Positions 39,739-61,965 are shown, counted from the stretch's first letter. The stretch: 64,000 nucleotides of DNA from an uncultured Aquabacterium sp. (GCF_947366995.1 NZ_CANBCC010000008.1:10189-74188), one strand, 5' to 3'. The notes: generated by a model not told the origin, from the sequence alone. Made by a program: numbers and translations.

Positions 39739-39739
39739 T

Positions 39740-44875: not shown

Positions 44876-44995
44876 GGGCGTCCTGTGTGAGTGAGGTGGA
44901 CAAGCCCGCCTGCCGGCAATCACCGTGCCCGCTCGTGCTGCAGCAGGCCGGCATGCAGTCCAGCGGTGAACGAGGCTCTGTGCAGAGCCGTCGGG

Positions 44996-46204: not shown

Positions 46205-46297
46205 GAACGGGGCGCTGAGGCGCTGGAGGACGAACGGGAGGGTGTGTGCAGCGTACCGCCGCCAGGGGATGGTCGCATGCGCAATGCCGCCTGCCGC

Positions 46298-47701
46298 TCA
46301 AATGAGCGCAGCCAGGGTCTCGATGGCGCGCGCCACCCGCCCGTCGTCAGGATGGCCTGCATTGAGCCTGAGGGCGTGCCGAAAGCGATGGTCCGCCGAG
46401 AACAGCGGGCCGGGCGCGAGGCTGATGCCGTGCTCCAGCGCGCGTTGATGCAGCCGGAGGGTGTCCGTGCCGGCCGGCAGCACGACCCACAGAAAGTAGC
46501 CGCCCTGCGGATCCGACACGGTCGTGCCCGGAGGGAAGTGGCGCAGCACCCAACGCCGCATCATGCCCATGTGCTGCGCCAGCTGAAGGCGCAGGCGTCG
46601 CAGGTGACTGTCGAGGCCGCCCTGTTCCATGTAGTCGGCGAGGGCAAGCTGCGAAGGCACGGGCGCACCCAGTGACCCCATCATTTTCAAACGCAGCACC
46701 GTGGATGTGTGGCGCCCAGCCGCAGCCCAGCCGATGCGATAGCCCGGCGCCAGGCATTTCGAGAACGAACTGCAGTGCAGAACCAGCCCCTCGCGGTCGA
46801 AGGCCTTGAGCGGGTGAGGCCGCGTGGCGCCATGAAAGAGTTCGCCGTACACGTCGTCCTCGATGATGGGCACACCCTCCGCAGTCAGCATCTCGACGAT
46901 GGCCTGGCGACGCGAGGTCGGCATCAAGGCACCGAGCGGGTTCTGAAAGCTCGGCATGATCCAGCACGCTGCCGGGCGATGTCGCGCGATCACCTCGGCG
47001 AGGCCATCGGGGTCCATGCCGAGCTGTGGGTCGGTCGGCACTTCGACCGCGCGCAGATGCAGCCGCTCCAATGCCTGGAGGGCCGCATAGAAAGTGGGGC
47101 TTTCCACCGCCACGACGTCGCCCGGCCGTGTCACCGCCTGCAGGCACAGGTTGAGAGCTTCCATCGCGCCGTTGGTGATCACCGGTTCTTCGGCGTTCAG
47201 CGTGATGCCGTGCCGTGCATAGCGTGCGCGCAGCGCATGGCGCAGTCGGTCGTTGCCCGCTGTGAGCTCGGCCGTCAAGGCCGCCGGTGCCAGATGACGC
47301 ATGGCGCGGGCGCCGCTACGGGCCAGCTTGTCCAGCGGAAACAGGGTGGGGGAGGGGAAGGCCGATCCGAGCGGCACGACCTCGGCATTGCGCGTGGACC
47401 GCAGGACGTCGAAGACCAGTTCGGAGACGGACACCTCGGTGCTGCCCTGAGCGACCGCCGCCGGTCCTTGCACGCCGGTCTGGACGGCCCGTTGCGCACA
47501 GACGTAGTAGCCCGAGCGCGGTCTCGCTTCGATCAGCCCACGTGATTCGAGCAGGTAGTAGGCCTGGAAGACGGTGGACGGACTGAGGTGGGTGTTCTGG
47601 CAGGCCTGGCGCACCGAGGGCAGCTTCTCGCCGGGCCGCAGTTGCCCCTCGCGAATGCGCAAGGTGATGGCCTCCGCGAGTTCCTCGTAACGCGTGCCCA
47701 T
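46298..47701 (-). CDS. MocR/GabR family regulator (GntR HTH plus PLP aminotransferase domain)
   Basis: GEKLPSVR, VESPTFY, FQNPLG, IIEDDVYGEL, SFSKCLAPG.RIGW. Confidence 0.9.
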   Translation of the reverse strand: MGTRYEELAEAITLRIREGQLRPGEKLPSVRQACQNTHLSPSTVFQAYYLLESRGLIEARPRSGYYVCAQRAVQTGVQGPAAVAQGSTEVSVSELVFDVLRSTRNAEVVPLGSAFPSPTLFPLDKLARSGARAMRHLAPAALTAELTAGNDRLRHALRARYARHGITLNAEEPVITNGAMEALNLCLQAVTRPGDVVAVESPTFYAALQALERLHLRAVEVPTDPQLGMDPDGLAEVIARHRPAACWIMPSFQNPLGALMPTSRRQAIVEMLTAEGVPIIEDDVYGELFHGATRPHPLKAFDREGLVLHCSSFSKCLAPGYRIGWAAAGRHTSTVLRLKMMGSLGAPVPSQLALADYMEQGGLDSHLRRLRLQLAQHMGMMRRWVLRHFPPGTTVSDPQGGYFLWVVLPAGTDTLRLHQRALEHGISLAPGPLFSADHRFRHALRLNAGHPDDGRVARAIETLAALI

Positions 47702-49098
47702 CACATCACCGAGGCGTGAACCTGTTCGGGGTGGGCCAGCACGTCGCCCACGACGCGCAGGCTCTGTTCGCATTGCGCCTGGGTGGTGGGCCCGCCCAGG
47801 CACAGGCGCACCGCACGCGGCGGAGCCGTGTTGGTGGCGAACGCCGTGCTGGCCACCGCGGCCACCCCGCGCGAACGCCAGAAGGACGCCGCTTCGTTCG
47901 GGCTCAGCCGATCCGGCAGACGCAGCCAGGCATGGAAACAATCGGGCTGGCTCCACACATCGTGCCCGCTGAGATGGCGCAACAGCATGGCGTGCCGCAC
48001 GTTGGTCTCGCGTCGGACGGCCTGGACCACGGCCGAGGCGGTGCCATCGTTGACCCACTGCGTTGCGAGGGCCACCGTCGGGGGCGCGGCCATGACGCTG
48101 AGGGCCCGCAATGCGCCGGCGAGGCGTTGCGTGGCCTGCGCCGTGGGCGCATGCACATAGGCCACGCGCAGACCGGCGCCCACGCACTTCGCGAACCCGG
48201 TCACGTGGTATGTCAGCCCGGGCGCCAGTTCGGCGAGCGTGACGGGCTGCCGGGTGGGCAGGGCGCCGTAGGCGTCGTCTTCGATGATGGGGATGCTGTA
48301 GCGCAGAGCGATGTCGGCCAGCGCCTCGCGGCGAGCCGCACTCATTGTCATCGCGGTCGGGTTCAGCATCGTGGGATTGCAGTAAAGCGCCTTGGGTCCG
48401 ACGTGCTTGCAGGCGTCCTCGAAGTGGTCGGGGCAGGGGCCATCCTTGTCCACGGGCAACGCGTACAGCTTCACGCCGAGTTGCGTGGCCAGCGCCTTGA
48501 TGCCGGGATAGCTGACGGATTCGACACACAGCGTGTCACCCGGGCGCGCCAGCATGCTGATCAGGCCCGCGAGCACGCCATGAATGCCCGGGCCGACGAG
48601 GACCCGCTCCGGCTGGGTCGGTCCCATGCTTGAGGCCAGCCAGCGCGCGCCCGCGTCACGGTCGGCCGGGGTGCCACCAAAGTCCTGGTAGCGCAGGTGG
48701 GCCAGCAGCCGCTGTGGCTCCTGGTAGATCTGGCGGCAGCCATCGGTCATGCGTGCCAGCAAGTCCGGGTCGTCTGGCTCGGGTGGCAGGTTCATGGTCA
48801 TCTCGGCCGCCGTGCCGCCGCGCAATGGCACGGCTGGAGCGGCACTGCGGACGAAGCTGCCTCGGCCCGGCCGGGCCTCGATCTGGCCACGCTTCTGCGC
48901 CTCGGCCAGGGCGCGCGCCACCGTCGTGTAGTTCAGGTCCAGGGCATCCGCCAGTGTCCGCATCGGAGGGAGTCGGTCTCCCGGCGCGAGCCGTCCGCTC
49001 GCAACGTCCTCGGCCAGCAGCTCTGGGATCAACAGGTATGCGGGCTTGTGACTGTCGCGCAGGCGGACAAGCCAGTGCTTGTAGAGGGTGTAAGGCAT
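47701..49098 (-). CDS. Second MocR family regulator, coupled to the first by a TGATG overlap
   Basis: GDRLPPMR.LA..L.LNYTTV.RA, LNPT, IIEDDAYG, FAKCVGAGLRVAY. Confidence 0.9.
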   Translation of the reverse strand: MPYTLYKHWLVRLRDSHKPAYLLIPELLAEDVASGRLAPGDRLPPMRTLADALDLNYTTVARALAEAQKRGQIEARPGRGSFVRSAAPAVPLRGGTAAEMTMNLPPEPDDPDLLARMTDGCRQIYQEPQRLLAHLRYQDFGGTPADRDAGARWLASSMGPTQPERVLVGPGIHGVLAGLISMLARPGDTLCVESVSYPGIKALATQLGVKLYALPVDKDGPCPDHFEDACKHVGPKALYCNPTMLNPTAMTMSAARREALADIALRYSIPIIEDDAYGALPTRQPVTLAELAPGLTYHVTGFAKCVGAGLRVAYVHAPTAQATQRLAGALRALSVMAAPPTVALATQWVNDGTASAVVQAVRRETNVRHAMLLRHLSGHDVWSQPDCFHAWLRLPDRLSPNEAASFWRSRGVAAVASTAFATNTAPPRAVRLCLGGPTTQAQCEQSLRVVGDVLAHPEQVHASVM

Positions 49099-49143
49099 GC
49101 CCAATTGATCGCATTCAACGTGCCAGATGATCGGATTAGATTG

Positions 49144-49160
49144 TGCACTCAAGCAGTGCA
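49144..49160. promoter_or_regulatory. NtrC-like binding site
   Basis: TGCAC-TCAAGCA-GTGCA, about 220 bp upstream of the sigma54 promoter. Confidence 0.6.
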
Positions 49161-49376
49161 AGGCAGCCCGAAATCGTGCGGCGAAATGTCGTTTGCACGA
49201 CGAGCCTGTCGGCTTTGGTGCGACCACTTACCCCGATCGGATGGCGCAGTGCAGCCGGAGGCGCTTGCCAGTGCCATTGCTTGATCGCATTGAGACCGAT
49301 CAACGCCCTCATTTGCGGGAGCTGCGCTGGATTCGGCCGATTGATCGCAACTTGATCGCACGCGGCCGCGGCCGCC

Positions 49377-49392
49377 TGGCACATCCGGTGCA
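49377..49392 (+). promoter_or_regulatory. sigma54 promoter of the Nit1C-type operon
   Basis: TGGCACATCCGGTGCA, GG-N10-GC. Confidence 0.72.
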
Positions 49393-49447
49393 CCTGCTTC
49401 AGCAGCGCGCGCCACCCTCTCTCATCCCTTACTTCTGGAGTGATCCC

Positions 49448-49930
49448 ATGCCTGCTGTGACCAAAGCCCCCAATCAGATCGGCGACTTCCTCGTGGACTA
49501 CGAAGAGAAGGTCTTCGAGGACGTGAAAGCCGAACCCGGCGACAAGGCCCTCGTCACCTTCCACACGGTGGCCTTCGAAGGCTCCATCGGCTTCGTCAAC
49601 CTGCTGCAGGCCACGCGTCTGCAGCGCAAGGGCTTCGACACCTCGGTGTTGCTGTACGGGCCGGGCGTCACGCTGGGCGTGAAGCGCGGCTTTCCCAAAC
49701 TGGGTGACGCCGCGTTTCCCGGCCACCTGAACTTCAACGACCAGATCGCCAAGTTCATCGCCGAGGGCGGCAAGGTCTACGCGTGCCGCTTCGCGCTGCA
49801 GGCCCTGTACGGGCACGGCGAGGGCTCGCTCATCGAAGGCATCAAGCCCATCAACCCCCTCGACGTGCTGGACATCATCCTGCTGCACCGCAAGGAGAAG
49901 GCCTTCATCCTCGACACCTGGACGCTGTGA
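49448..49930 (+). CDS. nitB: MSMEG_0572/Sll0783 family DsrE-like protein
   Basis: [43 protein letters not shown]. Confidence 0.88.
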
Positions 49931-49953
49931 TCGACTCAACCGGGTACGCCACC

Positions 49954-50994
49954 ATGAGCCAGCCACGCATCATCAAAGCCGCCGCCGTGCAGATCTCGCC
50001 CGTGTTGAACGAGGCCGAAGGCACGCTGCACAAGGTGCTCGACAGCATCGATGCCGCCGCCCGACAGGGCGTGCAGATCATCGTGTTCCCCGAGACCTTC
50101 GTGCCGTACTACCCCTACTTCTCGTTCATCCGGCCGCCCATGGCATCCGGGGCCGAGCACATGGCGCTGTATGAGCACGCGGTGGTCGTACCCGGCCCCG
50201 TCACCGAGGCTGTGGCTCAGCGCGCCCGCCAGCACGGCATGGTCGTCGTGCTCGGTGTGAACGAGCGCGACCACGGCACGATCTACAACACCCAGCTGAT
50301 CTTCGACGAGACCGGCACCCTGCGGCTCAAGCGCCGCAAGATCACGCCCACCTTCCACGAGCGCATGGTGTGGGGGCAGGGCGATGGCAGCGGCCTGAAG
50401 GTGGTCGACACGGCCGTGGGCCGGGTCGGGGCACTGGCCTGCTGGGAGCACTACAACCCCCTGGCCCGCTATGCCCTCATGGCGCAGCACGAGGAGATCC
50501 ACTGCGCCCAGTTCCCGGGCTCGCTCGTGGGGCCGATCTTTGCCGACCAGATGGAGGTGACGATCCGCCATCACGCACTCGAGTCTGGCTGCTTCGTCAT
50601 CAACAGCACGGGCTGGCTGACGGACGAGCAGATCCAGTCCATCACGCCCGAGCCCGGCTTGCAGCGTGCGCTGCGCGGGGGCTGCTGCACGGCCATCGTG
50701 TCGCCCGAAGGCGTGCACCTGGCGCCGCCGCTGAAGGAGGGCGAAGGCATGCTGGTGGTGGATCTCGACATGAGCCTCATCACCAAACGCAAGCGGATGA
50801 TGGATTCGGTCGGGCACTACGCGCGGCCGGAGCTGCTGAGCCTGCGGCTGGATGACCGGCCGACCGCGCCCGTGCACCTGCTCGGCGGGGCGGCCCTCGA
50901 GGGGCTGTCCCCTTCCATGGCCACGGGTCTGGGTACCGCGGCCTCGCCGGAAGCCTCGGCATTGGCCCCTGCGCCGCTGACGCGCGTCGCCTGA
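49954..50994 (+). CDS. nitC: Nit6803/Sll0784 family nitrilase
   Basis: [30 protein letters not shown] (E-K-C triad), [16 protein letters not shown]. Confidence 0.93.
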
Positions 50995-51030
50995 CCCCCT
51001 CGTCCCCGTCCTTGTCCTCAGGAGACCGGT

Positions 51031-52167
51031 ATGACCCTCTCGACCCTCAGTCCTCGCGCCCGCGACCTCATCACCGAGCTGCAATCCCGCGGCCTGCGCC
51101 TGGCGGACCCGGGCGTCGGTGCCCCGAGCCGCCGCGGCGGGGCAGGCCCGTCCGATCACAAGGCCGTGACCATCGACGGGCACACCGTGATGGTGCCCGT
51201 CCACACGGCGCCGGCCTTTGACTCGCCCTTTCTGGCCGATGCGCCGGATGCAGCCGGCACGAGCACGCTCAAGCACGGCAGCATCCCGATCGCGCAGATC
51301 ACATTTCCGTCGACCCCGCGCTTCTACGAACGCCAGACTGCCGACGGCGTCCCCTACAGCCACATCGCGACCTTGCACGGCCGCGATGTGCTGGCCACCA
51401 CGGTGCTGCAGACCTGCATCCGCTACGAGAGCCGACGCAAGAGCTGCCAGTTCTGCTCCATCGGCCAATCCCTGGCGGCGGGCCGCACGATCGCGCACAA
51501 GACACCGGCCCAGCTGGCCGAGGTGGCGCGCGCTGCGGTCGATCTGGACGGCATTCGCCACATGGTGCTGACGACCGGCACTCCGGCCACGCCCGACCGC
51601 GGCGCCGCCGTGCTGGTGGACAGCGCGCGCGCCCTCAAGGCTGCCGTGCCGGATCTGCCCATCCAGGCGCAGTGCGAGCCACCGGACAGCGACCTCTGGT
51701 TCCAGCGCTTGAAAGATGCGGGCGTCGACACGCTCGGCATGCACCTGGAAGCCGTCACGCCCGCCGTGCGCGAGCGCGTGATGCCGGGCAAGGCCAGTGT
51801 GCCGCTCGCGCGCTACTTCAGCGCCTTCGAGGCGGCGGTGGCCGTGTTCGGGCGGGGCCAGGTGAGCACCTACATCCTGGCCGGCCTCGGCGACAGCCGC
51901 GAAGCCATTCTGGACATCAGCCAGCGGCTGCTCGATATCGGCGTCTATCCCTTCGTGGTGCCCTTCGTGCCCATCACAGGCACACCGCTGGAAAGCCATC
52001 CGGCGCCGACCACGGAGTTCATGCGCTCGGTGCTCGAGCCACTGGGTCAGATGGTGAGCCAGGCCGGGCTGCGCGCCAGTGACATCAAGGCGGGCTGCGG
52101 CAAGTGTGGTGCCTGCTCGTCGTTGTCGGTGTACGAAACCGCCAGCCCGCTGGCCGTTCCGGCTTGA
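51031..52167 (+). CDS. nitD: MSMEG_0568 family radical SAM protein
   Basis: SRRGGAGPSDHKA, LATTVLQTCIRY...CQFC, C-terminal GCGKCGACS. Confidence 0.9.
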   Translation: MTLSTLSPRARDLITELQSRGLRLADPGVGAPSRRGGAGPSDHKAVTIDGHTVMVPVHTAPAFDSPFLADAPDAAGTSTLKHGSIPIAQITFPSTPRFYERQTADGVPYSHIATLHGRDVLATTVLQTCIRYESRRKSCQFCSIGQSLAAGRTIAHKTPAQLAEVARAAVDLDGIRHMVLTTGTPATPDRGAAVLVDSARALKAAVPDLPIQAQCEPPDSDLWFQRLKDAGVDTLGMHLEAVTPAVRERVMPGKASVPLARYFSAFEAAVAVFGRGQVSTYILAGLGDSREAILDISQRLLDIGVYPFVVPFVPITGTPLESHPAPTTEFMRSVLEPLGQMVSQAGLRASDIKAGCGKCGACSSLSVYETASPLAVPA

Positions 52168-52194
52168 TCAAAAAGCGCTTCGAAGGAGCCCGCC

Positions 52195-52782
52195 ATGCAA
52201 GCCCTCACCGTCTGTGAGTTGCCGATCGACTTTGCCCCGGCCGCCTTTCGCATCAAGTGCGTGAGCGAGCCGTGGGAGCGACGCGAGGCCCTGGCGCTGC
52301 GTCGTGCGGTGTTCTGCGTCGAGCAGGGCCTCTTCGTCGGCAACGACCTCGATGCCATCGACGCCGACGCCACCCTGCTGGTGGCCTGCGCCTGCGTGGC
52401 GGGCGAGTGCGACCAGGTGGTGGGCACGGTGCGCATCCACGAGGCCCAGCCCGGTGTGTGGTGGGGCTCGCGCCTGGCGGTGCACCCGTCCTACCGGCAT
52501 CTCGGCCGGCTGGGGGCCACGCTGATACGCCTGGCGGTCAGCATGGCCCATGCGCGGGGCGCGACGGCATTCTGGGCGCACGTGCAGCAGCAGAACGTCG
52601 CGTTGTTCGAGAAGCTGAACTGGCGGCTGCACGGGCCGGTGCAGTTGCATGGCCGGCCTCATGGCCTGATGGAGGCCAGCCTGGCGCACTACCCGCCATG
52701 CCATGAACCGGACTGGGGCTACTTCACGCTGCCGCAGGCCCGTGCACGCACCGCAGCGGCCGTTGGGGGGGACCGTGCATGA
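52195..52782 (+). CDS. nitE: MSMEG_0567/Sll0786 family GNAT acetyltransferase
   Basis: LRRAVFC.EQG.F, VGTVRIHE, W.GSRLAV, AHVQ.QN. Confidence 0.88.
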   Translation: MQALTVCELPIDFAPAAFRIKCVSEPWERREALALRRAVFCVEQGLFVGNDLDAIDADATLLVACACVAGECDQVVGTVRIHEAQPGVWWGSRLAVHPSYRHLGRLGATLIRLAVSMAHARGATAFWAHVQQQNVALFEKLNWRLHGPVQLHGRPHGLMEASLAHYPPCHEPDWGYFTLPQARARTAAAVGGDRA

Positions 52783-53849
52783 GCACCGCTCACCCACACG
52801 CGCCCCAAGGCCTCTCGCTCGACCTCGCGGCCCTGACCGTCCAGCTGCGCGCCAGCCGTGGCTTCGCGCACAAGCAGGACATCGCCGGGGTGGCGCAGGT
52901 GCTCTCGCGCCACCTGCCCGGCGGCTTGGGCGACACCACGCTGGCCCAGCAGGCCGGCATCGGCCTGGGCGACGACTGTGCCGTCATCCCCGATGGGCAC
53001 GGCGATCACCTGCTGCTGGCCATTGAAGGCCTGGTCGAGGACTTCGTCAGCGAGATGCCCTGGTTTGCCGGCTACAGCGCCGTCATGGTCAACCTCAGTG
53101 ACATTGCCGCCATGGGTGGCCGGCCCATCGCGGTGGTCGATGCGCTGTGGAGTGATGGGGTCGGGCAGGCAGAGCCCATCGTGCAAGGCATGGCCGCCGC
53201 CTCGGCCGCCTATGGCGTGCCCATCGTCGGCGGGCACAGCAACGCACGCGCGCCCCGGCCGCAACTCGCGGTGGCGGTGCTGGGCAAGGCCCGGCGTCTG
53301 TTGAGCAGCTTCGCGGCACGGCCGGGTCAGCGGTTGCTGATGGCCGTGGACCTGCGCGGGCAATGGGAGGGCGGCTACCCGTTCTGGAATGCGTCGACGC
53401 GGACTCCGGCCGACTGCCTCCGGGCCGACCTCGCCTTGTTGCCCCAGCTGGCCGAGGACGGGCTGTGCGCCGCCGCGAAGGACATCAGCATGGCGGGCGT
53501 GCTGGGCACGGTCCTCATGATGCTCGAGTGCTCGCAAGTCGGCGCCACGGTGGACCTTGCTGCCTTGCCGCATCCGCCCGGGCATGGGCCTGCCGAAGGG
53601 CTGCCCGCGTTGCTGCGGTGGCTGCAGGCCTTTCCGAGCTTCGGCTATGTGCTGGCCGTGGACGATGCCCATGTGGCGGCGGTGTGCGCGCGCTTCCACG
53701 CCCGCGGGATGGCCTGTGCGCCGATCGGCGCGGTGCAGGGAGGCAGTGCCCTGCAACTGCAAAGCGGCCTGGACAGCGACCTCGCGCTGCTGTGGGACTG
53801 GGCCGCGCACCCCTTCATCGTGCCGCAGTGCGAGCGGGAGGCCCCATGA
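52779..53849 (+). CDS. nitF: Sll0787 family AIR synthase/SelD-like protein
   Basis: GDDCAVIP, AGY..VMVN.SD.AAMGGRP, VGGH.N, KDISMAG. Confidence 0.88.
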   Translation: MSTAHPHAPQGLSLDLAALTVQLRASRGFAHKQDIAGVAQVLSRHLPGGLGDTTLAQQAGIGLGDDCAVIPDGHGDHLLLAIEGLVEDFVSEMPWFAGYSAVMVNLSDIAAMGGRPIAVVDALWSDGVGQAEPIVQGMAAASAAYGVPIVGGHSNARAPRPQLAVAVLGKARRLLSSFAARPGQRLLMAVDLRGQWEGGYPFWNASTRTPADCLRADLALLPQLAEDGLCAAAKDISMAGVLGTVLMMLECSQVGATVDLAALPHPPGHGPAEGLPALLRWLQAFPSFGYVLAVDDAHVAAVCARFHARGMACAPIGAVQGGSALQLQSGLDSDLALLWDWAAHPFIVPQCEREAP

Positions 53850-55036
53850 AGGCCGACCGACTCCGGATCGCCTTGCTCATGCACTCGCTCAACCCGCGGG
53901 GCGGGGTGGTGCACACGCTGGAACTGGCCGATGCGCTGGTGGCCCAGGGCCACGACGTGACCGTGATGGCGGCCGCCGCAGCAGGTCAGACCCTGTTCAG
54001 GTCCACGCGGGCGCGGCTGTCGATCGCGCCGCTTTTGGCCGGCCCGTCCGGGCTCGTGAACACGGTGCGCCATCGCATCGACGCCATGACCGATCACCTG
54101 CGCACGTCGAACGCGTTGGCGGACGTCGATGTCTTCCACTCGCAGGACAGCATCACCGCCAACGCCCTGGCCAACCTGACCGAAGAGGGCAGGGTGGGGG
54201 GCTACGTGCGCACGGTTCACCACCTTGACGCGTTCGACGAGCCGTCACTCACGGCATGGCAGGCCAGGGGCGTGACCACCGCCAGCCTGCTGCTGTGCGT
54301 GAGCGACCTGTGGCAAGGCGTGTTGCGCCGCGACTGGGCGCGTGAGGCCCGGCGCGTGCACAACGGCGTGAACCTGCAGCGCTACACCCCTGTCGTGACG
54401 GACGAGCAGGCCGCCATGGACCGCGAAGCTTTGCGTGCGCTGGGCGTTCAGCCCGCAGGGCCGGTGTGGCTGGCCGTGGGCGGCGTCGAGGCCCGCAAGA
54501 ACACCGTCGCGTTGCTACAGGCCTTTGCGCGTGTGCGCCGGCTGGCTCCACAAGCTCAGTTGGTGATCGCCGGTGGCGCGAGCCTGCTTCAGCATGACGC
54601 GGCCGTGCAGGCCTTCCAGACCCTTCGACACGAGGCCGGCCTGGCGCCGGGGCAGCCCGATGCCGATCGCCTGGTGTGCGCGGGGCCGGTCTCCGATGCC
54701 GTTCTCGCTGCACTGTACCGACGGGCCCGCGCACTCGTGATGCCGTCCCTCAAGGAGGGCTTCGGGCTGGTGGCTCTGGAGGCCATGGCGTGCGGGACGC
54801 CCGCCCTCGTCTCGCGCCGTGCGCCCTTCACAGAGCACTTCCGCGAAGGCGAGGTCTTCTGGGTCGACCCGCTCGATGTGGACGACATCGCCCGCGGCCT
54901 CGTGCAGAGCCTCGATTCGGATCACCACAGCGCACTGGCACACCAGGCCCGCGACGTGTGCCAGCGCTTCAGCTGGGCGGCCTCGGCCATCCGCCACATC
55001 GACCTTTACCAACACCACCTTGCCTGCCATGCCTGA
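53846..55036 (+). CDS. MSMEG_0565 family glycosyltransferase (GT-B, family 4-like)
   Basis: HSLNPRGGVVH.LELA, RTVHH, GG.E.RKN, PS.KEGFGLV.LEAMA. Confidence 0.88.
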   Translation: MKADRLRIALLMHSLNPRGGVVHTLELADALVAQGHDVTVMAAAAAGQTLFRSTRARLSIAPLLAGPSGLVNTVRHRIDAMTDHLRTSNALADVDVFHSQDSITANALANLTEEGRVGGYVRTVHHLDAFDEPSLTAWQARGVTTASLLLCVSDLWQGVLRRDWAREARRVHNGVNLQRYTPVVTDEQAAMDREALRALGVQPAGPVWLAVGGVEARKNTVALLQAFARVRRLAPQAQLVIAGGASLLQHDAAVQAFQTLRHEAGLAPGQPDADRLVCAGPVSDAVLAALYRRARALVMPSLKEGFGLVALEAMACGTPALVSRRAPFTEHFREGEVFWVDPLDVDDIARGLVQSLDSDHHSALAHQARDVCQRFSWAASAIRHIDLYQHHLACHA

Positions 55037-55319
55037 AATGCACTTCACCGTCCGCTGGCCGGACGGCACCGAACAGACCTGCTATTCGCCCTCCCTGGTT
55101 GTGCGCGAGCACCTGACGGCCGGCCAGCGCTACCCGCTGCCGGAGTTCCTGCAGCGCACCCACACCGCCCTGTCGATCGCGTCCGAGCGCGTGCGAGAGA
55201 AGTACGGCTTTGCCTGCTCGCGCGCCATGGACCAGTGGGCCGAAATCGAGAGCCAGGCCGAGCGCCACACCCCGTCACCCCAGGCCGAGGTCATGGTCCT
55301 GCATTTCGACCCCGCCTGA
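55029..55319 (+). CDS. nitG: MSMEG_0570 family small protein
   Basis: MPEMHF.VRWPDG....CYSPSLV, RV.EKYGFACS.A. Confidence 0.88.
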   Translation: MPEMHFTVRWPDGTEQTCYSPSLVVREHLTAGQRYPLPEFLQRTHTALSIASERVREKYGFACSRAMDQWAEIESQAERHTPSPQAEVMVLHFDPA

Positions 55320-55374
55320 CAGCGCCGCCATTCGCTTTTTCACACACACACCCACCCTCCGCGAGGACCCGACC

Positions 55375-56664
55375 ATGCACGCCCACCCTTCATCCGCTCC
55401 CGCCCATCACGCCGTTCTCATCGTCGGAGGCGGCCAGGCAGGGCTGTCGCTCAGCCACTACCTGCAGCAACGCAGCATCGACCACCTCGTGCTGGAGAAG
55501 CACACGCCCATGCACGCGTGGCGCACCCAGCGCTGGGACGCCTTCTGTCTGGTGACGCCCAACTGGCAGTGCAAGCTGCCGGGTCATGACTACGACGGCC
55601 CTGAGCCCCACGGCTTCATGAAGAAGGACCAGATCGTGGCGTATCTCGAGGCCTTCCTGAAGAAGGTGAACCCGCCGATGCTGACCGGCGTGACGGTGCA
55701 GCACGTCAAGGCCCGTCCGGAAGGGGGCTACGCCGTGCAGACCACGGCCGGTCTGTTCACCGCCGATCAGGTGGTGGTGGCGTCCGGCGGATACCACGAG
55801 CCTGTGGTGCCCCGCCTGGCCGAACGCCTGCCTGCCCACATCACCCAGCTGCACTCGGAGCAGTACCGCAACCCGCAGAGCCTGCCTGAAGGGGGCGTGC
55901 TGGTGGTGGGCTCCGGCCAGTCCGGGGCGCAGATTGCCGAAGACCTGCACCTGGCCGGCAAGCAGGTGCACCTGGCGGTCGGCGACGCGCCGCGGTGTGC
56001 GCGCTTCTACCGCGGCCGTGATGTGGTCGACTGGCTGGCCGACATGGGCTACTACGACATGCCGGTGGACCAGCACCCGCTGCGCGAAGGCGTGCGCGAC
56101 AACACCAACCACTATGTGACCGGCCGCGATGGCGGGCGCGACATCGACCTGCGCGCCTTCGCGAAGCAGGGCATGAAGCTGTACGGTCTGCTGGACAGCC
56201 TGCAAGACGGTGTGGTCTCGTTCCAGGACAACCTGAAGGCGGCGCTGGACCAGGCCGACAAGGTCTACAACGGGATCAACGCGGCCATCGACAAGCACAT
56301 TGCCGAACAGGGCATCGACGCACCCGCGGGCGGGGTCTACGAGCCGGTCTGGCAACCCGATGGCAACCACACGCGGCTGGATCTGGCGGCCGAAGGCATC
56401 ACCTCGGTCATCTGGTGCATCGGCTTCAAGCCGGACTTCAGCTGGCTGGATGCACCGGTGTTCAACGGCCGGGGCCAGCCGGTGCACCACCGGGGCGTCA
56501 CCCGGCAGGCGGGTCTGTACTTCCTGGGGCTGCCGTGGCTGTACACCTGGGGATCGGGCCGGTTCTCGGGCGTGGCGCGCGATGCGCTGTACCTGGCCGA
56601 GGCCATCGAGAAGCAGGCGCTGCGCGCACCCGTGGCGGCCCGTGAGCCCGCCCTGCACAGCTGA
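55375..56664 (+). CDS. nitH: MSMEG_0569 family flavin-dependent oxidoreductase
   Basis: GGGQAGLS, WDAFCLVTPNWQC, VGSGQSGAQIAEDL, DNTNHYVTGRDGGRDIDLR, YTWGSGRF. Confidence 0.9.
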   Translation: MHAHPSSAPAHHAVLIVGGGQAGLSLSHYLQQRSIDHLVLEKHTPMHAWRTQRWDAFCLVTPNWQCKLPGHDYDGPEPHGFMKKDQIVAYLEAFLKKVNPPMLTGVTVQHVKARPEGGYAVQTTAGLFTADQVVVASGGYHEPVVPRLAERLPAHITQLHSEQYRNPQSLPEGGVLVVGSGQSGAQIAEDLHLAGKQVHLAVGDAPRCARFYRGRDVVDWLADMGYYDMPVDQHPLREGVRDNTNHYVTGRDGGRDIDLRAFAKQGMKLYGLLDSLQDGVVSFQDNLKAALDQADKVYNGINAAIDKHIAEQGIDAPAGGVYEPVWQPDGNHTRLDLAAEGITSVIWCIGFKPDFSWLDAPVFNGRGQPVHHRGVTRQAGLYFLGLPWLYTWGSGRFSGVARDALYLAEAIEKQALRAPVAAREPALHS

Positions 56665-56739
56665 CAGGCCATCTGATACGGTGTTTTCTTCAGAAAACTG
56701 ATCACACCATCCCAGGCCGCCGTGCGGGAGCATGGCGGC

Positions 56740-57462
56740 ATGACATCGGATCTCACCTCCACCGGCGCTGAGCAGGACGCGCCATCCCGCCTGGCTTCCG
56801 TCGCACGCCGTGGGCTGCTGCGCTGTGCCGTGCCCCTGGCGCAGGGCGGCGATGGCGCCCCGGTTGACGAACTGGTCTGCCGGATCCGCGAGCTGGCCGG
56901 GCAGGACATGGCCTCCGCCCGCATCGCGTGGGCCCAGCGCCTCGCCGTCGAGGCACTGGTTCACAGTCCCAACATCGCGCTGCGCGAACACCTCTTGCCC
57001 GATCTGCTGACCGGGGCCCTGGCCGGCACCTTGTCCTGGCGCCTGGACCTCACCCTGGCCTCCGCGCGGTCGCTGGTTCAGGCACAGCCGCTGGAGCGCG
57101 GCTGGCACCTGAACGGCCTGCTCGACGACGTGCCCAACCTGCAATGGGAGGGCTATGTGGTCGTGTGCCCTGTGCGCTTTGATGCGCAGGTGGGCCAGCC
57201 CCAGCGCTGGGCCTGGGTGGTCCTGCGCAGTGAAGAGGACGGTCTGCGCCACATGATCGACGTGGCCCGCCCCCAAGACGTGGCCACCGCCAGCGGCACC
57301 GTCCGCCTGAACAACGTCTATTTCCGTGAGGACGAGCTGCTGGCCGACGACCCGCACCGCCTCGCCCTGCACCTGCAACTGCTCGATCAGGCCCTGCGTC
57401 CCGCGATGCTGGCGGCGGCGCTGAGCCGGCCTGCGCCTGTCCACAAGAAGTACGAGGTCTGA
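56740..57462 (+). CDS. Truncated acyl-CoA dehydrogenase-like protein
   Basis: Resembles the ACAD N-terminal/middle domains (SPN.ALRE.LLP.L..G, GW.LNG, TASG.V.L.NV); no C-terminal helical domain. Confidence 0.5.
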   Translation: MTSDLTSTGAEQDAPSRLASVARRGLLRCAVPLAQGGDGAPVDELVCRIRELAGQDMASARIAWAQRLAVEALVHSPNIALREHLLPDLLTGALAGTLSWRLDLTLASARSLVQAQPLERGWHLNGLLDDVPNLQWEGYVVVCPVRFDAQVGQPQRWAWVVLRSEEDGLRHMIDVARPQDVATASGTVRLNNVYFREDELLADDPHRLALHLQLLDQALRPAMLAAALSRPAPVHKKYEV

Positions 57463-57464
57463 CC

Positions 57465-58907
57465 ATGTCGTCCACCCCCCGCGTGATCCCCATCCAGCCC
57501 GTGTCCCTGATGCCGGGCGTGGAGGCTGCCAGCAAGGTGCAGCCCAAGTCCGTCAAGGGCCGATTCAGCCGCCTGCGCTGGCTGATGTTGGCCCTGACCC
57601 AGCTCTTCTTCTTCGGCCTGCCCTGGCTGGAATGGCAGGGCCGCCAGATGGTGCGCTTCGACCTGGAAGCCAAGCGCTTCTATCTGGGCAGCCTGATCTT
57701 CCTGCCGCAGGACCTGATCTTCCTCACCGGCCTGCTGGTGTTCTGCGCGATGCTGCTGTTTGCGGCCACCACGCTGGCCGGCCGCGTGTGGTGCGGCTTC
57801 AGTTGCCCGCAGACCGTGTACACCTCGCTGTTCATGTGGGTCGAGCGGCATACCGAGGGCGACCGCTACCAGCGCATCCGGCTCGATCAGTCGGGCTGGA
57901 CCGCCAACAAGCTGCTGCGCCGGGGCGGCAAGCACGCGGTGTGGATCGCCATCAGCCTGTGGACGGGCTTCACCTTCGTGGGCTGGTTCTCGCCCATCCG
58001 CGAGGTCGGGCCGCAGATCCTGCACGGCACAGTGGGCTTCTGGGATGTGTTCTGGAGCCTGTTCTACGGCGTGGCCTGCTATGGCAACGCAGGTTTCCTG
58101 CGCGAGAAGGTGTGCCTGCACATGTGCCCCTACGGCCGCTTCCAGGGTGCCCTGATGGACAGCGAGACCCTGATCGTGGGCTATGACGTGAAGCGGGGTG
58201 AGCCGCGGGGCGTGCCCCGCAAGGGCAGCGAGGAGCCCTCGCGCCCGGGCGCCTGTGTGGACTGCACCCTGTGCGTCCAGGTCTGCCCCACCGGCGTGGA
58301 CATCCGCAATGGCCTGCAGGCCGGATGCATCGGCTGCGCGCTCTGCATCGACGCGTGCGATGCCGTCATGGACAAGATCGGTCAGCCGCGTGGTCTGATC
58401 CGCTACGCCCGGCAGCGCGAGCTTCAGGGCGATGGGCAGGGCGGCCAGGCCACCACACCGGGCGGCGTCGGCAGCCTGCTCATGCGCCACCGCGTTCGCC
58501 TGTATGCTGGCGTGATGGGCGGCTTGCTGCTCGCCATGGCCTGGTCGGTGGCGCATCGCCCCGACATCCGTGTGGACGTCATCCGCGACCGGGGCGTGAT
58601 GGCCCGCCTGGTCGAGGACGGCGCCGTTGAAAACGTCTACCGCCTGCAACTCATGAACCAGACCGAGCAGCTTCAGCGCATTGCGATCACTGTCGAAGGC
58701 TTGCCGGGCGCTCAGGTGATGAGCCGGTCGGACATCGTCCTGTCGCCGGTGGCCGACATGCAGTTGACCGTGTCGGTGCAACTGCCCATGTCACAGGCCG
58801 CCAGGCTGGCAGGTCAGACCCTGCCGATCCGGTTCCAGGTGGCCAGCCGAAGCGCGACGCAGGCGGACCTCCTGTCCGAAGGCAGCACCTTCATCGTGCC
58901 GCGATGA
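57465..58907 (+). CDS. ccoG: Cytochrome oxidase accessory polyferredoxin CcoG/FixG
   Basis: GR.WCG..CPQTV, CPYGRFQ, CVDCTLCVQVCPTGVDIR.GLQ..CIGCALCIDAC. Confidence 0.92.
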   Translation: MSSTPRVIPIQPVSLMPGVEAASKVQPKSVKGRFSRLRWLMLALTQLFFFGLPWLEWQGRQMVRFDLEAKRFYLGSLIFLPQDLIFLTGLLVFCAMLLFAATTLAGRVWCGFSCPQTVYTSLFMWVERHTEGDRYQRIRLDQSGWTANKLLRRGGKHAVWIAISLWTGFTFVGWFSPIREVGPQILHGTVGFWDVFWSLFYGVACYGNAGFLREKVCLHMCPYGRFQGALMDSETLIVGYDVKRGEPRGVPRKGSEEPSRPGACVDCTLCVQVCPTGVDIRNGLQAGCIGCALCIDACDAVMDKIGQPRGLIRYARQRELQGDGQGGQATTPGGVGSLLMRHRVRLYAGVMGGLLLAMAWSVAHRPDIRVDVIRDRGVMARLVEDGAVENVYRLQLMNQTEQLQRIAITVEGLPGAQVMSRSDIVLSPVADMQLTVSVQLPMSQAARLAGQTLPIRFQVASRSATQADLLSEGSTFIVPR

Positions 58908-59827
58908 GGCCCCGCGCGGCCGGCGAGACCGGCGCCCGCCATGCAAGCGACAACCTGAGGGGCATGGGCTGGATGGTGCTGGCGATGGCCGCCTTCGCGC
59001 TGGAAGACGCCTTGCTCAAGCAGGTGGCCCGCATGCTGCCGATCGGCCAGGTCCTGGTGCTGTTCGGGATCGGTGGCGCGCTGGTGTTCGGGCTCTACCG
59101 ACGCGAGGGCATGCAGCCCCTCTGGCACGCCGATGCGCGTTCGAAGCCCATGTGGGTGCGGGCCGGATTCGAGATCACCGGCCGCCTGTTCTATGTGCTG
59201 GCCATTGCCCTGACACCGCTGTCTTCCGCGACGGCCATCCTGCAGGCCACGCCGGTGCTGGTGGTGCTGGGCGCACGCTTTTACTTCGGCGAACGGGTGG
59301 GCGCCGTGCGTTGGGTGGCGGTGCTGCTGGGCCTGGCCGGCGTCGCCGTGGTCCTGAGGCCGACCGCGGGCGACTTCTCCGTGCTCTCCCTGCTGACGGT
59401 GGTCGGCATGGTGGGCTTCGCCGGGCGTGACCTGGCCAGCCGTGCGGTGCCCGTGACGCTGGGCACGCGCCACCTCGGCTTCTACGGCTTTCTGGCCGTG
59501 GTGGTGGCCGGTGCGCTGTATGCCGTCTGGCAAGGGCAGGCATGGGTCTGGCCGGATCGCGCGGGCGTGGTGGCCCTGGTTGTGGCCGTGCTGGTGGGCA
59601 CCGGGGCCTATGCTTCGCTGATGAAAGCCATGCGCACGGGCGATGTGGCAGCGGTCACGCCGCTGCGCTACACGCGCCTGTTGTTCGGGGTCGGCATGGG
59701 CGTCGTCGCGTTCGGCGAGCAGGTCGACGCCATCACACTGGCCGGTTGCGCGGTGATTCTGCTTGCAGGGCTGCTGTTGACCTGGGATGCGCGCCGGTCT
59801 CGCCGCAGGGTGCAAGCCCGCCCATGA
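58904..59827 (+). CDS. DMT/EamA family transporter
   Basis: Ten hydrophobic segments, GERVG..RW, P..Y..L. Confidence 0.85.
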   Translation: MRPRAAGETGARHASDNLRGMGWMVLAMAAFALEDALLKQVARMLPIGQVLVLFGIGGALVFGLYRREGMQPLWHADARSKPMWVRAGFEITGRLFYVLAIALTPLSSATAILQATPVLVVLGARFYFGERVGAVRWVAVLLGLAGVAVVLRPTAGDFSVLSLLTVVGMVGFAGRDLASRAVPVTLGTRHLGFYGFLAVVVAGALYAVWQGQAWVWPDRAGVVALVVAVLVGTGAYASLMKAMRTGDVAAVTPLRYTRLLFGVGMGVVAFGEQVDAITLAGCAVILLAGLLLTWDARRSRRRVQARP

Positions 59828-61264: not shown

Positions 61265-61275
61265 GACAGGGCTCC

Positions 61276-61965
61276 TCAGTAGGTTTGATCAGCGTCTGCG
61301 TTCCAGTGGTACAGCGAGCGAGCGGAAGCCACGCGCTTGAAGTCCTGCGGCTTGTGGTTCAGGCCCGCGGCGGCCAGCAGCTCGGTCAGCGCGGTGATGT
61401 CGCTGTCGCCCAGCGGCTCCAGCTGCGCATCGGCGCCCAGGCTCTTGATCTCGCCCTTCACGTAGATCACGGCTTCGTACAGCGAGTCGCCCAGAGCGTC
61501 GCCGGCGTTGCCGCAGATGACCATGCGGCCGGCCTGTGCCATGAAGCCCGAGAAGCTGCCGACCGAGCCCCCCACCACGATGTCGCCGCCCTTGAGCGAG
61601 ATGCCACAGCGCAGGCCCGCATCGCCGTCGATGATCAGCAGGCCACCGTGGGCCGAGGCCCCGGCGCTGTTCGAGGCAAAGCCCTTCACGTGCACCTTGC
61701 CGCTCATCATGTTCTCGGCCACGCCGGTGCCGGCGCTGCCATTGATGGTCACGTCGGCCAGCTTGTTCATGCCGGCGGCGTAGTAGCCTGCATGGCCATC
61801 GATGGTCACCTTCACCGGGGCATTCATGCCCACGGCGATGTTGTGGGCGCCATCGGGGTTCACGACGGTGATGTGCTGACCGGTCAGCTCGGCTGCCGGG
61901 CCGTGCAGGTGCTGGTTGAGCGGGCGAACGCCACCCTGGCTCAGGTCAAAGGTCAGGCTTTCCAT
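61276..61965 (-). CDS. mgsB: N-methylglutamate synthase GXGXG subunit (GlxC-like)
   Basis: GAHNIAVG, GYYAAGMN, AENMMSG, RCGISLKG, GDSLYEA. Confidence 0.85.
   Translation of the reverse strand: MESLTFDLSQGGVRPLNQHLHGPAAELTGQHITVVNPDGAHNIAVGMNAPVKVTIDGHAGYYAAGMNKLADVTINGSAGTGVAENMMSGKVHVKGFASNSAGASAHGGLLIIDGDAGLRCGISLKGGDIVVGGSVGSFSGFMAQAGRMVICGNAGDALGDSLYEAVIYVKGEIKSLGADAQLEPLGDSDITALTELLAAAGLNHKPQDFKRVASARSLYHWNADADQTY

Follow-up and report, generated by a model that had tools for sequence, protein, structure and literature searches.

An intact Nit1C operon with a glycosyltransferase gene on a plasmid-type replicon of Aquabacterium

Does a Nit1C gene cluster serve the utilisation of nitriles, or do the enzymes encoded around its nitrilase make something else? 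This question is raised by a locus in a 64,000-nucleotide stretch of DNA from an uncultured Aquabacterium sp. (the whole stretch analysed, hereafter the window). The initial annotation had described a complete eight-gene Nit1C cluster, glycosyltransferase included, with an enzyme set that looked biosynthetic, and had regarded the chemistry apart from the nitrilase as unresolved, in agreement with the literature (PMC7815647, PMC11049912).

Gene content, order and known copies

The completeness of the cluster was confirmed by NCBIfam profile search. Positions 49448-56664 contain eight plus-strand genes, one for each MSMEG_0565-0572 / Nit1C family, and every model exceeded its own curated cut-off (NCBIfam bit score vs cut-off in brackets):

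49448-49930, + strand: nitB, 160 aa, TIGR04044, MSMEG_0572/Sll0783 family (276.5 vs 109.9 bits)
49954-50994, + strand: nitC, 346 aa, TIGR04048, Nit6803-family branch-1 nitrilase (586.5 vs 502.6 bits)
51031-52167, + strand: nitD, 378 aa, TIGR04043, MSMEG_0568-family variant radical SAM protein (592.5 vs 303.7 bits)
52195-52782, + strand: nitE, 195 aa, TIGR04045, GNAT acyltransferase (211.3 vs 68.5 bits)
52779-53849, + strand: nitF, 356 aa, TIGR04049, AIR-synthase/PurM-superfamily ATP-dependent enzyme (433.5 vs 321.3 bits)
53846-55036, + strand: GT4 (GT-B) glycosyltransferase, 396 aa, TIGR04047, MSMEG_0565 family (437.3 vs 259.9 bits)
55038-55319, + strand: nitG, 93 aa, TIGR04042, MSMEG_0570 family (129.8 vs 79.9 bits)
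55375-56664, + strand: nitH, 429 aa, TIGR04046, MSMEG_0569-family flavoprotein (691.1 vs 498.4 bits)

The description of the operon as tightly coupled was borne out by the intergenic spacing, which from nitB to nitH is only 23, 36, 27, -4, -4, 1 and 55 nt. Gene order was unchanged in all 80 related loci fetched, covering two classes of Proteobacteria, and was accompanied by overlapping stop/start codons; a constancy of 80/80 is far beyond chance. The locus is an intact Nit1C operon, nitB-nitC-nitD-nitE-nitF-GT-nitG-nitH, of the MSMEG_0565-0572 or 'gpr' type in its betaproteobacterial arrangement, on a large plasmid-type replicon of an Aquabacterium near A. olei. Nit1C clusters are often found on plasmids, with a NitB homologue carried by 516 PLSDB plasmids.

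The eight genes and their order are identical to those of the Burkholderia/Rubrivivax Nit1C described in 2005 (Podar et al., PMC1199592), where the betaproteobacterial arrangement likewise has the glycosyltransferase between ORF5 (AIR-synthase-like) and ORF6 (small protein) and the flavoprotein at the end, and where ORF1 was already assigned a YchN-like fold; no difference was found in the structural genes. A corresponding locus with shared gene order is present on plasmid pTB101 of A. olei NBRC 110486 (NZ_CP029211.1, DEH84_RS18505-RS18560), with 94-97% DNA identity to window positions 44000-59776 and each gene given the matching family name by PGAP (NCBI). Any novelty of the locus falls with the exact architecture published in 2005 and the gene-by-gene NCBI annotation of pTB101; the Aquabacterium operon is an ordinary copy of a long-known, already annotated Nit1C.

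The nitABCDEFGH clusters of P. pseudoalcaligenes and P. fluorescens, associated with cyanide and nitrile assimilation (PMC5939895, PMC7815647, PMC11049912), share the seven core genes in the order seen here but lack the GT4 glycosyltransferase. The gpr cluster MSMEG_0565-0572 of M. smegmatis (PMC6039565) shares the protein families, glycosyltransferase included, whereas the family names imply a fusion of the GNAT and AIR-synthase-like proteins, which are separate genes in Aquabacterium. Of 69 complete related loci, 50 had the glycosyltransferase gene and 19 lacked it cleanly while being otherwise complete, and on the core-gene tree its presence or absence changes at least nine times (gains or losses). 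Of all the genes it is also the least conserved (42-52% identity across most of the related loci). The glycosyltransferase belongs to the cluster as an optional member, and a core role is disfavoured by its clean absences and repeated changes on the tree; its activity would be an optional tailoring or accessory step outside the core chemistry.

Promoter elements and control of the operon

The divergent regulator gene and the region that separates it from nitB comprise the following features:

47701-49098, - strand: MocR1, divergent MocR/GabR-type PLP-dependent regulator (YrdX-type, EhuR-like; Pfam GntR and Aminotran_1_2)
49105-49113, + strand: TTGATCGCA box beside the MocR1 start, possible autoregulation site
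49281-49289, + strand: TTGATCGCA box, followed by inverted CGATCAA
49341-49360, + strand: tandem direct repeat TTGATCGCA-N2-TTGATCGCA with an 11-bp period, candidate MocR1 operator
49377-49392, + strand: sigma-54-type promoter TGGCAC-N5-GTGCA (GG-N10-GC), 56 nt upstream of nitB

MocR1 scored 377 bits against NF052286 (EhuR), under the cut-off of 480, and has kept the PLP lysine (GFAKCVG aligned with SFSKTLG of MppQ). The four exact copies of TTGATCGCA in the 64-kb window all lie within this 350-bp MocR1/nitB intergenic region, the tandem repeat being ~35 bp upstream of the -24 element, and the single match to TGGCAC-N5-KTGCR in the window is the nitB promoter. Among 71 related loci, all 71 have a MocR-type gene next to the operon, 63 have a TGATYG-N5-TGATYG repeat at a constant ~35 bp from TGGCA, and 65 have a like sigma-54 element 53-113 nt ahead of nitB. 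This conservation of regulator, boxes and promoter differs from the 2005 description, in which a conserved regulator or binding site was not found (PMC1199592).

Sequence and conservation suggest that transcription of the nitB operon starts at the sigma-54 promoter (49377-49392) and that the divergent MocR1 modulates it via the tandem TTGATCGCA boxes that immediately precede the -24 element. Sigma-54 promoters require an enhancer-binding ATPase; none is encoded beside the operon, the sole one in the window being NorR-like and located with the nor genes, which counts against this model of control. Two runs labelled 'RNA?' gave a flat depth on both strands. In the Pseudomonas clusters the promoter class, as here, fits a sigma-54-dependent activator; their regulator is the enhancer-binding protein NitA, which is absent in Aquabacterium, and a MocR gene beside the Pseudomonas cluster is not reported (PMC5939895, PMC7815647, PMC11049912). 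The M. smegmatis cluster differs from the sigma-54 and MocR arrangement in having GlnR as its regulator, with a SoxR box (PMC6039565).

The link between MocR and Nit1C is not new, being already contained in the supplement to a 2016 study of MocR-TF regulogs (Suvorova and Rodionov, PMC5320631). Its independently reconstructed YrdX and YrdX3 regulogs, listed for Burkholderia, Comamonadaceae, Ralstonia, Rhizobiales and Acetobacteraceae, combine a divergent MocR-type regulator, as here, with a predicted regulon of PF02635, COG388, COG2516, COG3153, COG2144, COG2072, with or without COG438, and a hypothetical protein, which matches the Nit1C genes. MocR1 corresponds to regulog 'YrdX'; the table entry names neither Nit1C nor promoter class nor effector, and Aquabacterium is not covered. 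A sigma-54 promoter combined with a MocR-type PLP-dependent regulator, which regulon content relates to cyanide-responsive systems, is more usual for a utilisation operon that responds to its substrate or to stress than for a cofactor made constitutively.

Encoded proteins and readings of their function

The label 'DsrE-like' for NitB held at the level of the fold, though sequence searches of Pfam and the PDB detected no DsrE likeness. In Foldseek, the AlphaFold model (pLDDT 85) had DsrE/DsrF, YchN and TusBCD-type proteins as all of its top 15 matches (best 3mc3, E 2.6e-6), and Cys113, aligned with Cys94 of 3mc3, was invariant across 33 NitB sequences with identity down to 40%. The predicted structure confirms a DsrE/YchN (sulfur-carrier) fold in which the DsrE-type position is occupied by an invariant cysteine. 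The nitC product also matched Pfam CN_hydrolase and shows the Glu/Lys/Cys motifs FPETF, RRKITP and ACWEH. NitD has seven invariant cysteines (C129, C139, C142, C215, C356, C359 and C362) and weaker NCBIfam similarity to LipS2, LipA and HmdB; a sequence search for a solved relative gave none. NitE matched Pfam Acetyltransf_1 and FeeM, and NitF matched AIRS and AIRS_C, with ThiL, SelD and PurL as nearest solved relatives. NitB (81-90% identity across Burkholderiales) and the radical SAM protein (74-79%) were both no less conserved than the nitrilase. For NitG, 'small Cys protein' was a generous label, with two cysteines in total, but both are conserved in 43 sequences (C60 invariant, C15 nearly so); the AlphaFold model (pLDDT 94) had no match in a PDB fold search (best E 0.4) and points to a confidently folded orphan. 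NitH matched Pfam Pyr_redox_3, Lys_Orn_oxgnase and FMO-like, and its nearest solved relatives (4usr, 4usq, 4c5o, 4a9w) are deposited as monooxygenase, flavin monooxygenase or pyridine nucleotide-disulfide oxidoreductase; the protein resembles class B flavin monooxygenases.

The reading that we favour, at a probability of roughly 0.55, is that of an intact plasmid-borne Nit1C under sigma-54/MocR control, responsive to nitrogen limitation and cyanide, which yields ammonium by way of a nitrile delivered by a six-protein substrate unit. The inducers would be nitrogen limitation together with cyanide itself or an amine or nitrile derived from it, and the output would be ammonium liberated by the nitrilase, with the other six core proteins jointly forming or carrying the nitrile as a single unit. 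Its chemistry is probably thiol-based, drawing on Cys113 in the DsrE fold of NitB and on both conserved NitG cysteines; family membership suggests ATP-dependent activation for NitF, radical SAM chemistry for NitD and acyl transfer for NitE, and NitH may perform an oxygenation dependent on O2 and NAD(P)H.

The stated need for Nit1C in cyanide and nitrile assimilation by P. pseudoalcaligenes matches the finding that neither cyanide nor nitriles support growth of nitA, nitB or nitC mutants (PMC5939895), and induction by nitrogen starvation agrees with M. smegmatis, where it was shown and where GlnR raises expression of the cluster >500-fold (PMC6039565). Against nitrile utilisation stand the lack of any transporter within the core cluster and the poor kinetics of the purified Pseudomonas nitrilase, a poor catalyst for all nitriles tested that handles cyanide poorly and reaches only ~5e3 M-1 s-1 on its best substrates (PMC7815647). 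Nor are the phenotypes in M. smegmatis and Synechocystis (NADPH/NADP ratio, peroxide resistance, PHB) an obvious consequence of ammonium release.

The missing transporter and weak nitrilase would also suit a cluster whose product is a cofactor or a small molecule, such as a redox metabolite that contains sulfur, is acylated and in some cases also carries a sugar, with the nitrilase converting a nitrile intermediate to the carboxylate. Consistent with this are the GT4 enzyme, nearest in NCBIfam to MshA (87 bits) and BshA, the weak matches of the GNAT to MshD and of NitH to the YpdA bacillithiol-disulfide-reductase family, the cysteine in place on the sulfur-carrier fold of NitB, and the resemblance of the radical SAM protein, with its four further invariant cysteines, to the sulfur-inserting LipS2 and LipA; the M. 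smegmatis cluster raises peroxide resistance and the NADPH/NADP ratio (PMC6039565), and the NCBI annotation includes the GO term 'biosynthetic process'. The thiol-pathway matches, however, are far under their cut-offs and generic for GT4, GNAT and Rossmann flavoproteins, and the glycosyltransferase comes and goes while the rest of the cluster stays. Most of the nearest solved NitH relatives are deposited as monooxygenases (one as the disulfide oxidoreductase), regulation through sigma-54, an effector-binding protein of the MocR type, GlnR, NtcA or NitA is characteristic of operons for utilisation or stress, and the literature reports no cluster product in 20 years. A biosynthetic role appears rather unlikely.

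A protein-borne substrate is improbable. Here a cysteine of NitG, NitB or the nitrilase would capture cyanide or a one-carbon C-N unit, NitF would interconvert S-carbamoyl and S-cyano groups as HypE does, and the nitrilase would release CO2 and NH3. The PurM superfamily, to which NitF belongs, also contains HypE, and class B flavin monooxygenases, which NitH resembles, are capable of sulfur oxygenation; the small, well-folded orphan NitG and the invariant Cys113 of NitB would supply thiols. HypE was nevertheless absent among the NitF matches listed, the radical SAM protein and the GNAT are left without a role, and in vitro the nitrilase acts on small nitriles in free form. That the nitrilase alone matters, the remaining genes being unrelated passengers kept by chance or block horizontal transfer, would fit the frequent plasmid location and the restriction of documented mutants in the cited literature to nitA, nitB and nitC, but is very improbable given the invariant order with overlapping codons, the conservation of NitB and the radical SAM protein, the requirement for nitB (PMC5939895) and the implied fusion in M. 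smegmatis.

Downstream module and second MocR-type regulator

For the favoured reading of a cyanide-responsive nitrile-utilising operon, the genes beyond nitH and next to MocR1 are also of interest:

46298-47722, - strand: MocR2, second MocR-type regulator (GntR wHTH and aminotransferase-like domain; Pfam GntR, Aminotran_1_2)
56671-56677, + strand: ATCTGAT box inside the 57-nt gap after nitH, identical to the P. aeruginosa MpaR box
56722-57462, + strand: short acyl-CoA-dehydrogenase-like (ACAD-like) protein, N-terminal and middle part only (weak Pfam Acyl-CoA_dh_N, SfnB)
57465-58907, + strand: CcoG/FixG-family iron-sulfur protein (TIGR02745, 454.8 vs 316.7 bits; Pfam Fer4_18, FixG_C)
58904-59827, + strand: EamA/DMT-family transporter (Pfam EamA), end of the co-directional run

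Transcription probably continues into this module, which carries its own MpaR-type box. MocR2 (nearest NCBIfam models PdxR and YczR, neither reaching its cut-off) and the module at 56671-59827 form a counterpart of the PA4129-PA4134/MpaR cluster of P. aeruginosa (PMC10790758), sharing a MocR-type PLP regulator, a ccoG-like gene and ATCTGAT, the MpaR box defined there, upstream of the target. The MpaR regulon is cyanide-inducible and comprises ccoN4, nirA-PA4129 and ccoG-like-mpaR; in Aquabacterium, ccoN4Q4 and nirA are absent, their place is taken by the ACAD-like gene and DMT transporter, and any response to cyanide is putative. The Ralstonia YrdX3 regulon (cyoABCD, cysI, COG3749; PMC5320631) resembles that of MpaR, and the cyanide-induced cio-nit4 cluster of P. 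pseudoalcaligenes is under a MocR repressor (PMC8567248). The identical 7-bp box and the gene neighbourhood make MocR2 a candidate MpaR-like regulator of the ccoG-like module.

On pTB101 the counterparts are annotated acyl-CoA/acyl-ACP dehydrogenase and DMT family transporter, and synteny with the window stops past the latter gene. The plasmid lacks ~1 kb equivalent to window positions 46425-47424, the 3' kilobase of MocR2, so that its second MocR gene encodes only a 166-aa wHTH protein. The ACAD-like family is small (190 proteins), and the organism names given for its matches are all Burkholderiales. MocR2 orthologues (52-86% identity) adjoin a ccoG-like gene in seven related loci (L001, L003, L004, L007, L042, L070 and L077), accompanied by an ACAD-like gene in all except L042. 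In four of these (L003, L004, L070 and L077) the MocR2/ACAD-like intergenic region contains ATCTGAT-N33-ATCAGAT, the only such pairs in 1.48 Mb of loci.

Gene content and conservation of the Nit1C operon

A complete eight-gene Nit1C cluster, including the glycosyltransferase, had been proposed in the initial annotation. This was confirmed using genes taken from the ORF listing and their translations, with membership based on NCBIfam score against the curated cut-off in bits. The eight plus-strand genes at 49448-56664 each exceeded a curated cut-off, every gene that of a separate family in the MSMEG_0565-0572/Sll0783-0787 set (8/8 families).

Genes of the Nit1C operon in order, with NCBIfam family and score vs curated cut-off (bits)
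nitB (ORF1): MSMEG_0572/Sll0783 family, TIGR04044; 276.5 vs 109.9; directly upstream of nitC, gap 23 nt
nitC: Nit6803-family nitrilase, TIGR04048; 586.5 vs 502.6
nitD: MSMEG_0568-family radical SAM protein, TIGR04043; 592.5 vs 303.7
nitE: GNAT, TIGR04045; 211.3 vs 68.5; 4-nt overlap with nitF
nitF: AIR-synthase-like protein, TIGR04049; 433.5 vs 321.3
GT4 glycosyltransferase: MSMEG_0565 family, TIGR04047; 437.3 vs 259.9; between ORF5 and ORF6
nitG: small MSMEG_0570-family protein, TIGR04042; 129.8 vs 79.9
nitH: MSMEG_0569-family flavoprotein, TIGR04046; 691.1 vs 498.4

Pfam was concordant for the six operon proteins with known domains, NitB and NitG giving no Pfam match, and the translated nitrilase contained the Glu-Lys-Cys catalytic set (FPETF, RRKITP, ACWEH). 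The genes are also as tightly coupled as first described, with successive gaps from nitB to nitH of 23, 36, 27, -4, -4, 1 and 55 nt (range -4 to 55 nt). The gene set itself is already known: Nit1C was defined in 2005 by Podar et al., who had already given ORF1 a YchN-like fold and described the glycosyltransferase at the same position as here, that of the betaproteobacterial/actinobacterial variant (PMC1199592); family models exist for all members, and the genes are annotated on a near-identical plasmid.

The earlier description of NitB as DsrE-like held at the level of fold. The NitB structure predicted by AlphaFold from 33 sequences (pLDDT 85) gave DsrE/DsrF-like, YchN, DsrEFH and TusBCD structures as its 15 best Foldseek PDB matches, with 3mc3 as the top match (E 2.6e-6, TM 0.79 on target). 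The NitB family profile matched 3mc3 marginally in sequence, aligning the invariant Cys113 (YACRF) with Cys94, which we take to be the sulfur-binding position of DsrE3-type proteins. The family is compact, with 309 matches among 1.84 billion representatives. The NitG model (pLDDT 94) matched no solved fold in a PDB fold search (best E 0.4); of its cysteines, C60 is fully and C15 almost fully conserved. PDB sequence searches with NitB, NitG and the radical SAM protein returned noise or nothing, leaving NitD with no solved relative by sequence. NitD, whose family comprises over 7,700 of the protein collection's 90%-identity clusters, showed weak similarity to LipS2, LipA and HmdB and carried seven invariant cysteines among 12 aligned Burkholderiales sequences, three spaced C-X9-C-X2-C and four others that include CGKCGAC. 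The nearest solved relatives of NitF were ThiL, SelD and PurL, and those of NitH were the small class B flavin monooxygenases 4usr, 4usq and 4a9w, mostly deposited as monooxygenases, with one named a pyridine nucleotide-disulfide oxidoreductase.

The analysis was extended to 80 related loci, mostly from Burkholderiales together with Paracoccus and Nitratireductor, obtained in one scan of species-representative genomes. Gene order was collinear, co-directional and unchanged in all 80. Across most Burkholderiales loci, with the closest Aquabacterium-group relatives set aside, aa identity to the window was 81-90% for NitB, about 75-80% for the nitrilase and radical SAM protein, about 70% for the flavoprotein, 55-62% for the GNAT, AIR-synthase-like protein and NitG, and 42-52% for the glycosyltransferase. 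The latter was present in 50 of the 69 loci in which the seven-gene core is complete and cleanly absent from the other 19, where the AIR-synthase-like gene abuts or overlaps nitG. On a concatenated NitB+NitC+NitD+NitH tree its presence changed at least nine times, all changes being forced by well-supported branches, with gains or losses for example within Variovorax, Caballeronia and Ramlibacter. As judged from these changes and the clean absences, the glycosyltransferase is optional and dispensable to whatever the core does. Natural pairs of loci with and without it, such as Variovorax L031/L034 against L041/L055, provide a control for the contribution of this enzyme.

Promoter, operator and two MocR-type regulators

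The elements considered here flank the operon as follows.

46298-47722 (-): MocR2, second MocR-type gene, overlapping the end of the MocR1 gene
47701-49098 (-): MocR1, MocR-type gene divergent from nitB
49341-49360: two copies of TTGATCGCA as a tandem repeat (11-bp period), with the -24 element about 35 bp downstream
49377-49392: sigma-54 consensus (GG-N10-GC), TGGCACATCCGGTGCA
56671-56677: ATCTGAT
56722-57462 (+): short ACAD-like gene, starting 57 nt after the Nit1C genes
57465-58907 (+): CcoG-family gene (454.8 bits vs cut-off 316.7)
58904-59827 (+): DMT transporter gene

The sigma-54 consensus is the sole match in the window and lies in the 350-bp MocR1/nitB intergenic region, which also holds all four exact copies of TTGATCGCA found in the 64 kb. 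Both features recurred among the 71 loci with enough upstream sequence: a sigma-54-type element stood 53-113 nt before nitB in 65/71, and a tandem TGATYG-N5-TGATYG at the same fixed offset in 63/71. A MocR-type gene was divergently upstream in 67/71 and just downstream of nitH in 4/71, and none of the 71 loci was without one. In Burkholderiales and some alphaproteobacteria, a PLP-dependent regulator of the MocR type accompanied Nit1C at every one of these loci (71/71). An NtrC-like palindrome at 49144-49160 (TGCACTCAAGCAGTGCA) was rejected as it was conserved in no related locus, including the closest relatives. No gene for an enhancer-binding protein adjoins the operon; the window codes for a single such protein, which is NorR-like and located with nor genes, and we assume that a global activator such as NtrC drives the sigma-54 promoter. 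The conserved sigma-54 promoter lends indirect support only to induction by nitrogen limitation or cyanide. In two public runs labelled ‘RNA?’ (X15 and X16), contig depth was flat across genes on either strand and was uninformative on expression.

MocR1 combines a GntR wHTH with a fold-type-I aminotransferase-like domain in which the PLP lysine is kept. Its nearest model was the ectoine regulator EhuR (NF052286), with a score below the cut-off (377 vs 480 bits); given this score and its Nit1C neighbors, MocR1 is not EhuR/EnuR itself and is described as EhuR-like only. A sigma-54 parallel with the EnuR-controlled ectoine operon was also dropped, the published promoter being sigma-70. The MocR-Nit1C pairing is not new, as it is contained in a 2016 supplementary table: the predicted members of the MocR regulogs ‘YrdX’ and ‘YrdX3’ of Suvorova and Rodionov match the Nit1C set (PF02635, COG388, COG2516, COG3153, COG2144, COG2072, a hypothetical protein and, optionally, COG438) and cover Burkholderia, Methylibium, Polaromonas, Variovorax, Ralstonia eutropha, Rhizobiales and Acetobacteraceae (PMC5320631 supplement). 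In the Nit1C literature, as far as found, the regulators named are the sigma-54 activator NitA, GlnR and NtcA only. What could matter is the combination of MocR regulator, operator and sigma-54 context, which that literature, as found, does not mention, together with the junction, in Aquabacterium, to a module bearing the box bound by the cyanide-responsive MpaR.

The MocR2 gene and the genes downstream of nitH may form a second module. MocR2 orthologues are divergent from, and adjoin, an ACAD-like/ccoG-like pair in four of the related loci (L003, L004, L070 and L077), and the intergenic regions concerned contain ATCTGAT-N33-ATCAGAT, a pair that occurs four times in all in the 1.48 Mb retrieved. 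In the window, ATCTGAT falls inside the 57-nt gap before the ACAD-like gene; its count is not enriched (3 found, 3 expected), and the case for an MpaR-type box is made from this position and from the conserved inverted pair elsewhere, not from copy number. MocR2 resembles MpaR in its MocR architecture, in ATCTGAT at the target promoter and in the adjacent ccoG-like gene, a likeness of box and neighborhood. In P. aeruginosa, MpaR acts through ATCTGAT on a cyanide-inducible cluster comprising ccoN4Q4, nirA-PA4129 and ccoG-like-mpaR, and its proposed signal is cyanide-modified PLP (PMC10790758). The content of YrdX3 in Ralstonia, which controls cyoABCD, cysI and COG3749 (PMC5320631 supplement), resembles that cluster, and in P. 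pseudoalcaligenes a cyanide-induced cio-nit4 cluster is under a MocR repressor (PMC8567248). A route from the 246-aa ACAD-like protein to PA4129 was sought through its homologues, which formed a small family whose named organisms were all Burkholderiales, with no Pseudomonas. In this Aquabacterium lineage two modules, each under a putative MocR regulator, are thus joined as one divergent pair of transcription units.

Proposed function of the cluster

Growth on cyanide and nitriles requires nitB and nitC (PMC5939895), and in M. smegmatis nitrogen starvation strongly induces the cluster, which increases NADPH/NADP (PMC6039565). The nitrilase, once purified, acts preferentially on planar vinylic nitriles and poorly on cyanide (PMC7815647). 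With a probability of roughly 0.55, the operon would answer nitrogen limitation and cyanide or nitriles, its output being ammonium from a nitrile, with the six accessory proteins acting jointly, probably on thiol-bound intermediates.

The initial interpretation fared unevenly. Its link to nitrogen starvation and to cyanide or nitrile use agrees with the published work, and its biosynthetic part, in which sulfur relay, ATP activation, a radical step, acylation and glycosylation would make or install a cofactor or modified metabolite, is rather unlikely; the DsrE fold of NitB is in place, and the glycosyltransferase belongs to the optional part of the gene set. A strictly protein-borne S-cyano/S-carbamoyl cycle is improbable. 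It is equally improbable that the beta- and alphaproteobacterial operons belong to a MocR cyanide-response regulon with cyanide-modified PLP as its signal, as put forward for MpaR, and with a thiol-based ‘cyanide oxygenase’ as the Nit1C core. In this scheme, the class B monooxygenase NitH, or a persulfide on DsrE-fold NitB, would activate a NitB or NitG cysteine, which would capture HCN as an S-cyano group; the nitrilase would hydrolyse this to CO2 and NH3, and a HypE-like NitF would re-dehydrate the S-carbamoyl side product. Cyanotrophic pseudomonads have long been reported to convert cyanide to CO2 and NH3 in an O2- and NAD(P)H-dependent manner, and this proposal, if true, would explain both that conversion and the essentiality of nitB. 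Action of the nitrilase only, with the other genes playing no part, is very improbable.

Compared with these readings, that of a nitrogen-limitation and cyanide or nitrile response is preferred. The cluster has been an enigma for 20 years; identifying its inducer would lead most directly to the substrate, and the by-products of the present analysis, namely a precise promoter and operator map, an optional glycosyltransferase and an MpaR-type link, together suggest a short path to that inducer.

Plasmid setting and neighboring genes

The window most likely belongs to a megaplasmid akin to pTB101 (366 kb) of A. olei NBRC 110486, because a Rep3-type initiator (35312-36637) and a ParB/SopB-like protein (38503-39591) are encoded 10-14 kb upstream of the operon and because pTB101 is 94-97% identical to the window across 44000-59776. 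In pTB101, PGAP gives all these genes the same family names; about 1 kb of the window (46425-47424) is missing there, and in this type strain all that is left of the second MocR gene is a 166-aa wHTH remnant. Synteny with pTB101 stops after the DMT transporter gene. The plasmid-type maintenance block spans 35312-41968, with G+C down to 0.62, and by pTB101 synteny also includes a ParA-type ATPase and a large integrase-family gene (39740-41968, - strand). More widely, NitB homologues were found on 516 PLSDB plasmid records (374 Klebsiella, 30 Escherichia), most of non-mobilizable type, Nit1C being common plasmid cargo of enterobacteria in this collection.

Elsewhere in the window, ORFs at 21917-23326 (+, 469 aa) and 31374-32660 (-, 428 aa), both with high third-position G+C, gave no Pfam match at E 1e-5. 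An anaerobic ribonucleotide reductase (nrdD) and its activase (nrdG) are encoded at 3371-6100, and a nitric-oxide response cluster at 9248-19936 comprises the NorR-like sigma-54 activator, ytfE/scdA, norC, norB, norQ and norD. A large HPII-type catalase with a DJ-1/PfpI-like C-terminal domain (42425-44923, - strand) lies 4.5 kb upstream of nitB, perhaps by coincidence; the M. smegmatis cluster has been reported to confer peroxide resistance. Adjoining Nit1C on the other side, four minus-strand genes at 59900-63977 encode a glutamate-synthase-domain FMN protein, a GXGXG protein, a class II amidotransferase and a type III glutamine synthetase. This set, absent at the equivalent position of pTB101, resembles the N-methylglutamate/gamma-glutamyl-amine pathway for methylated-amine use and would be another nitrogen-scavenging set.
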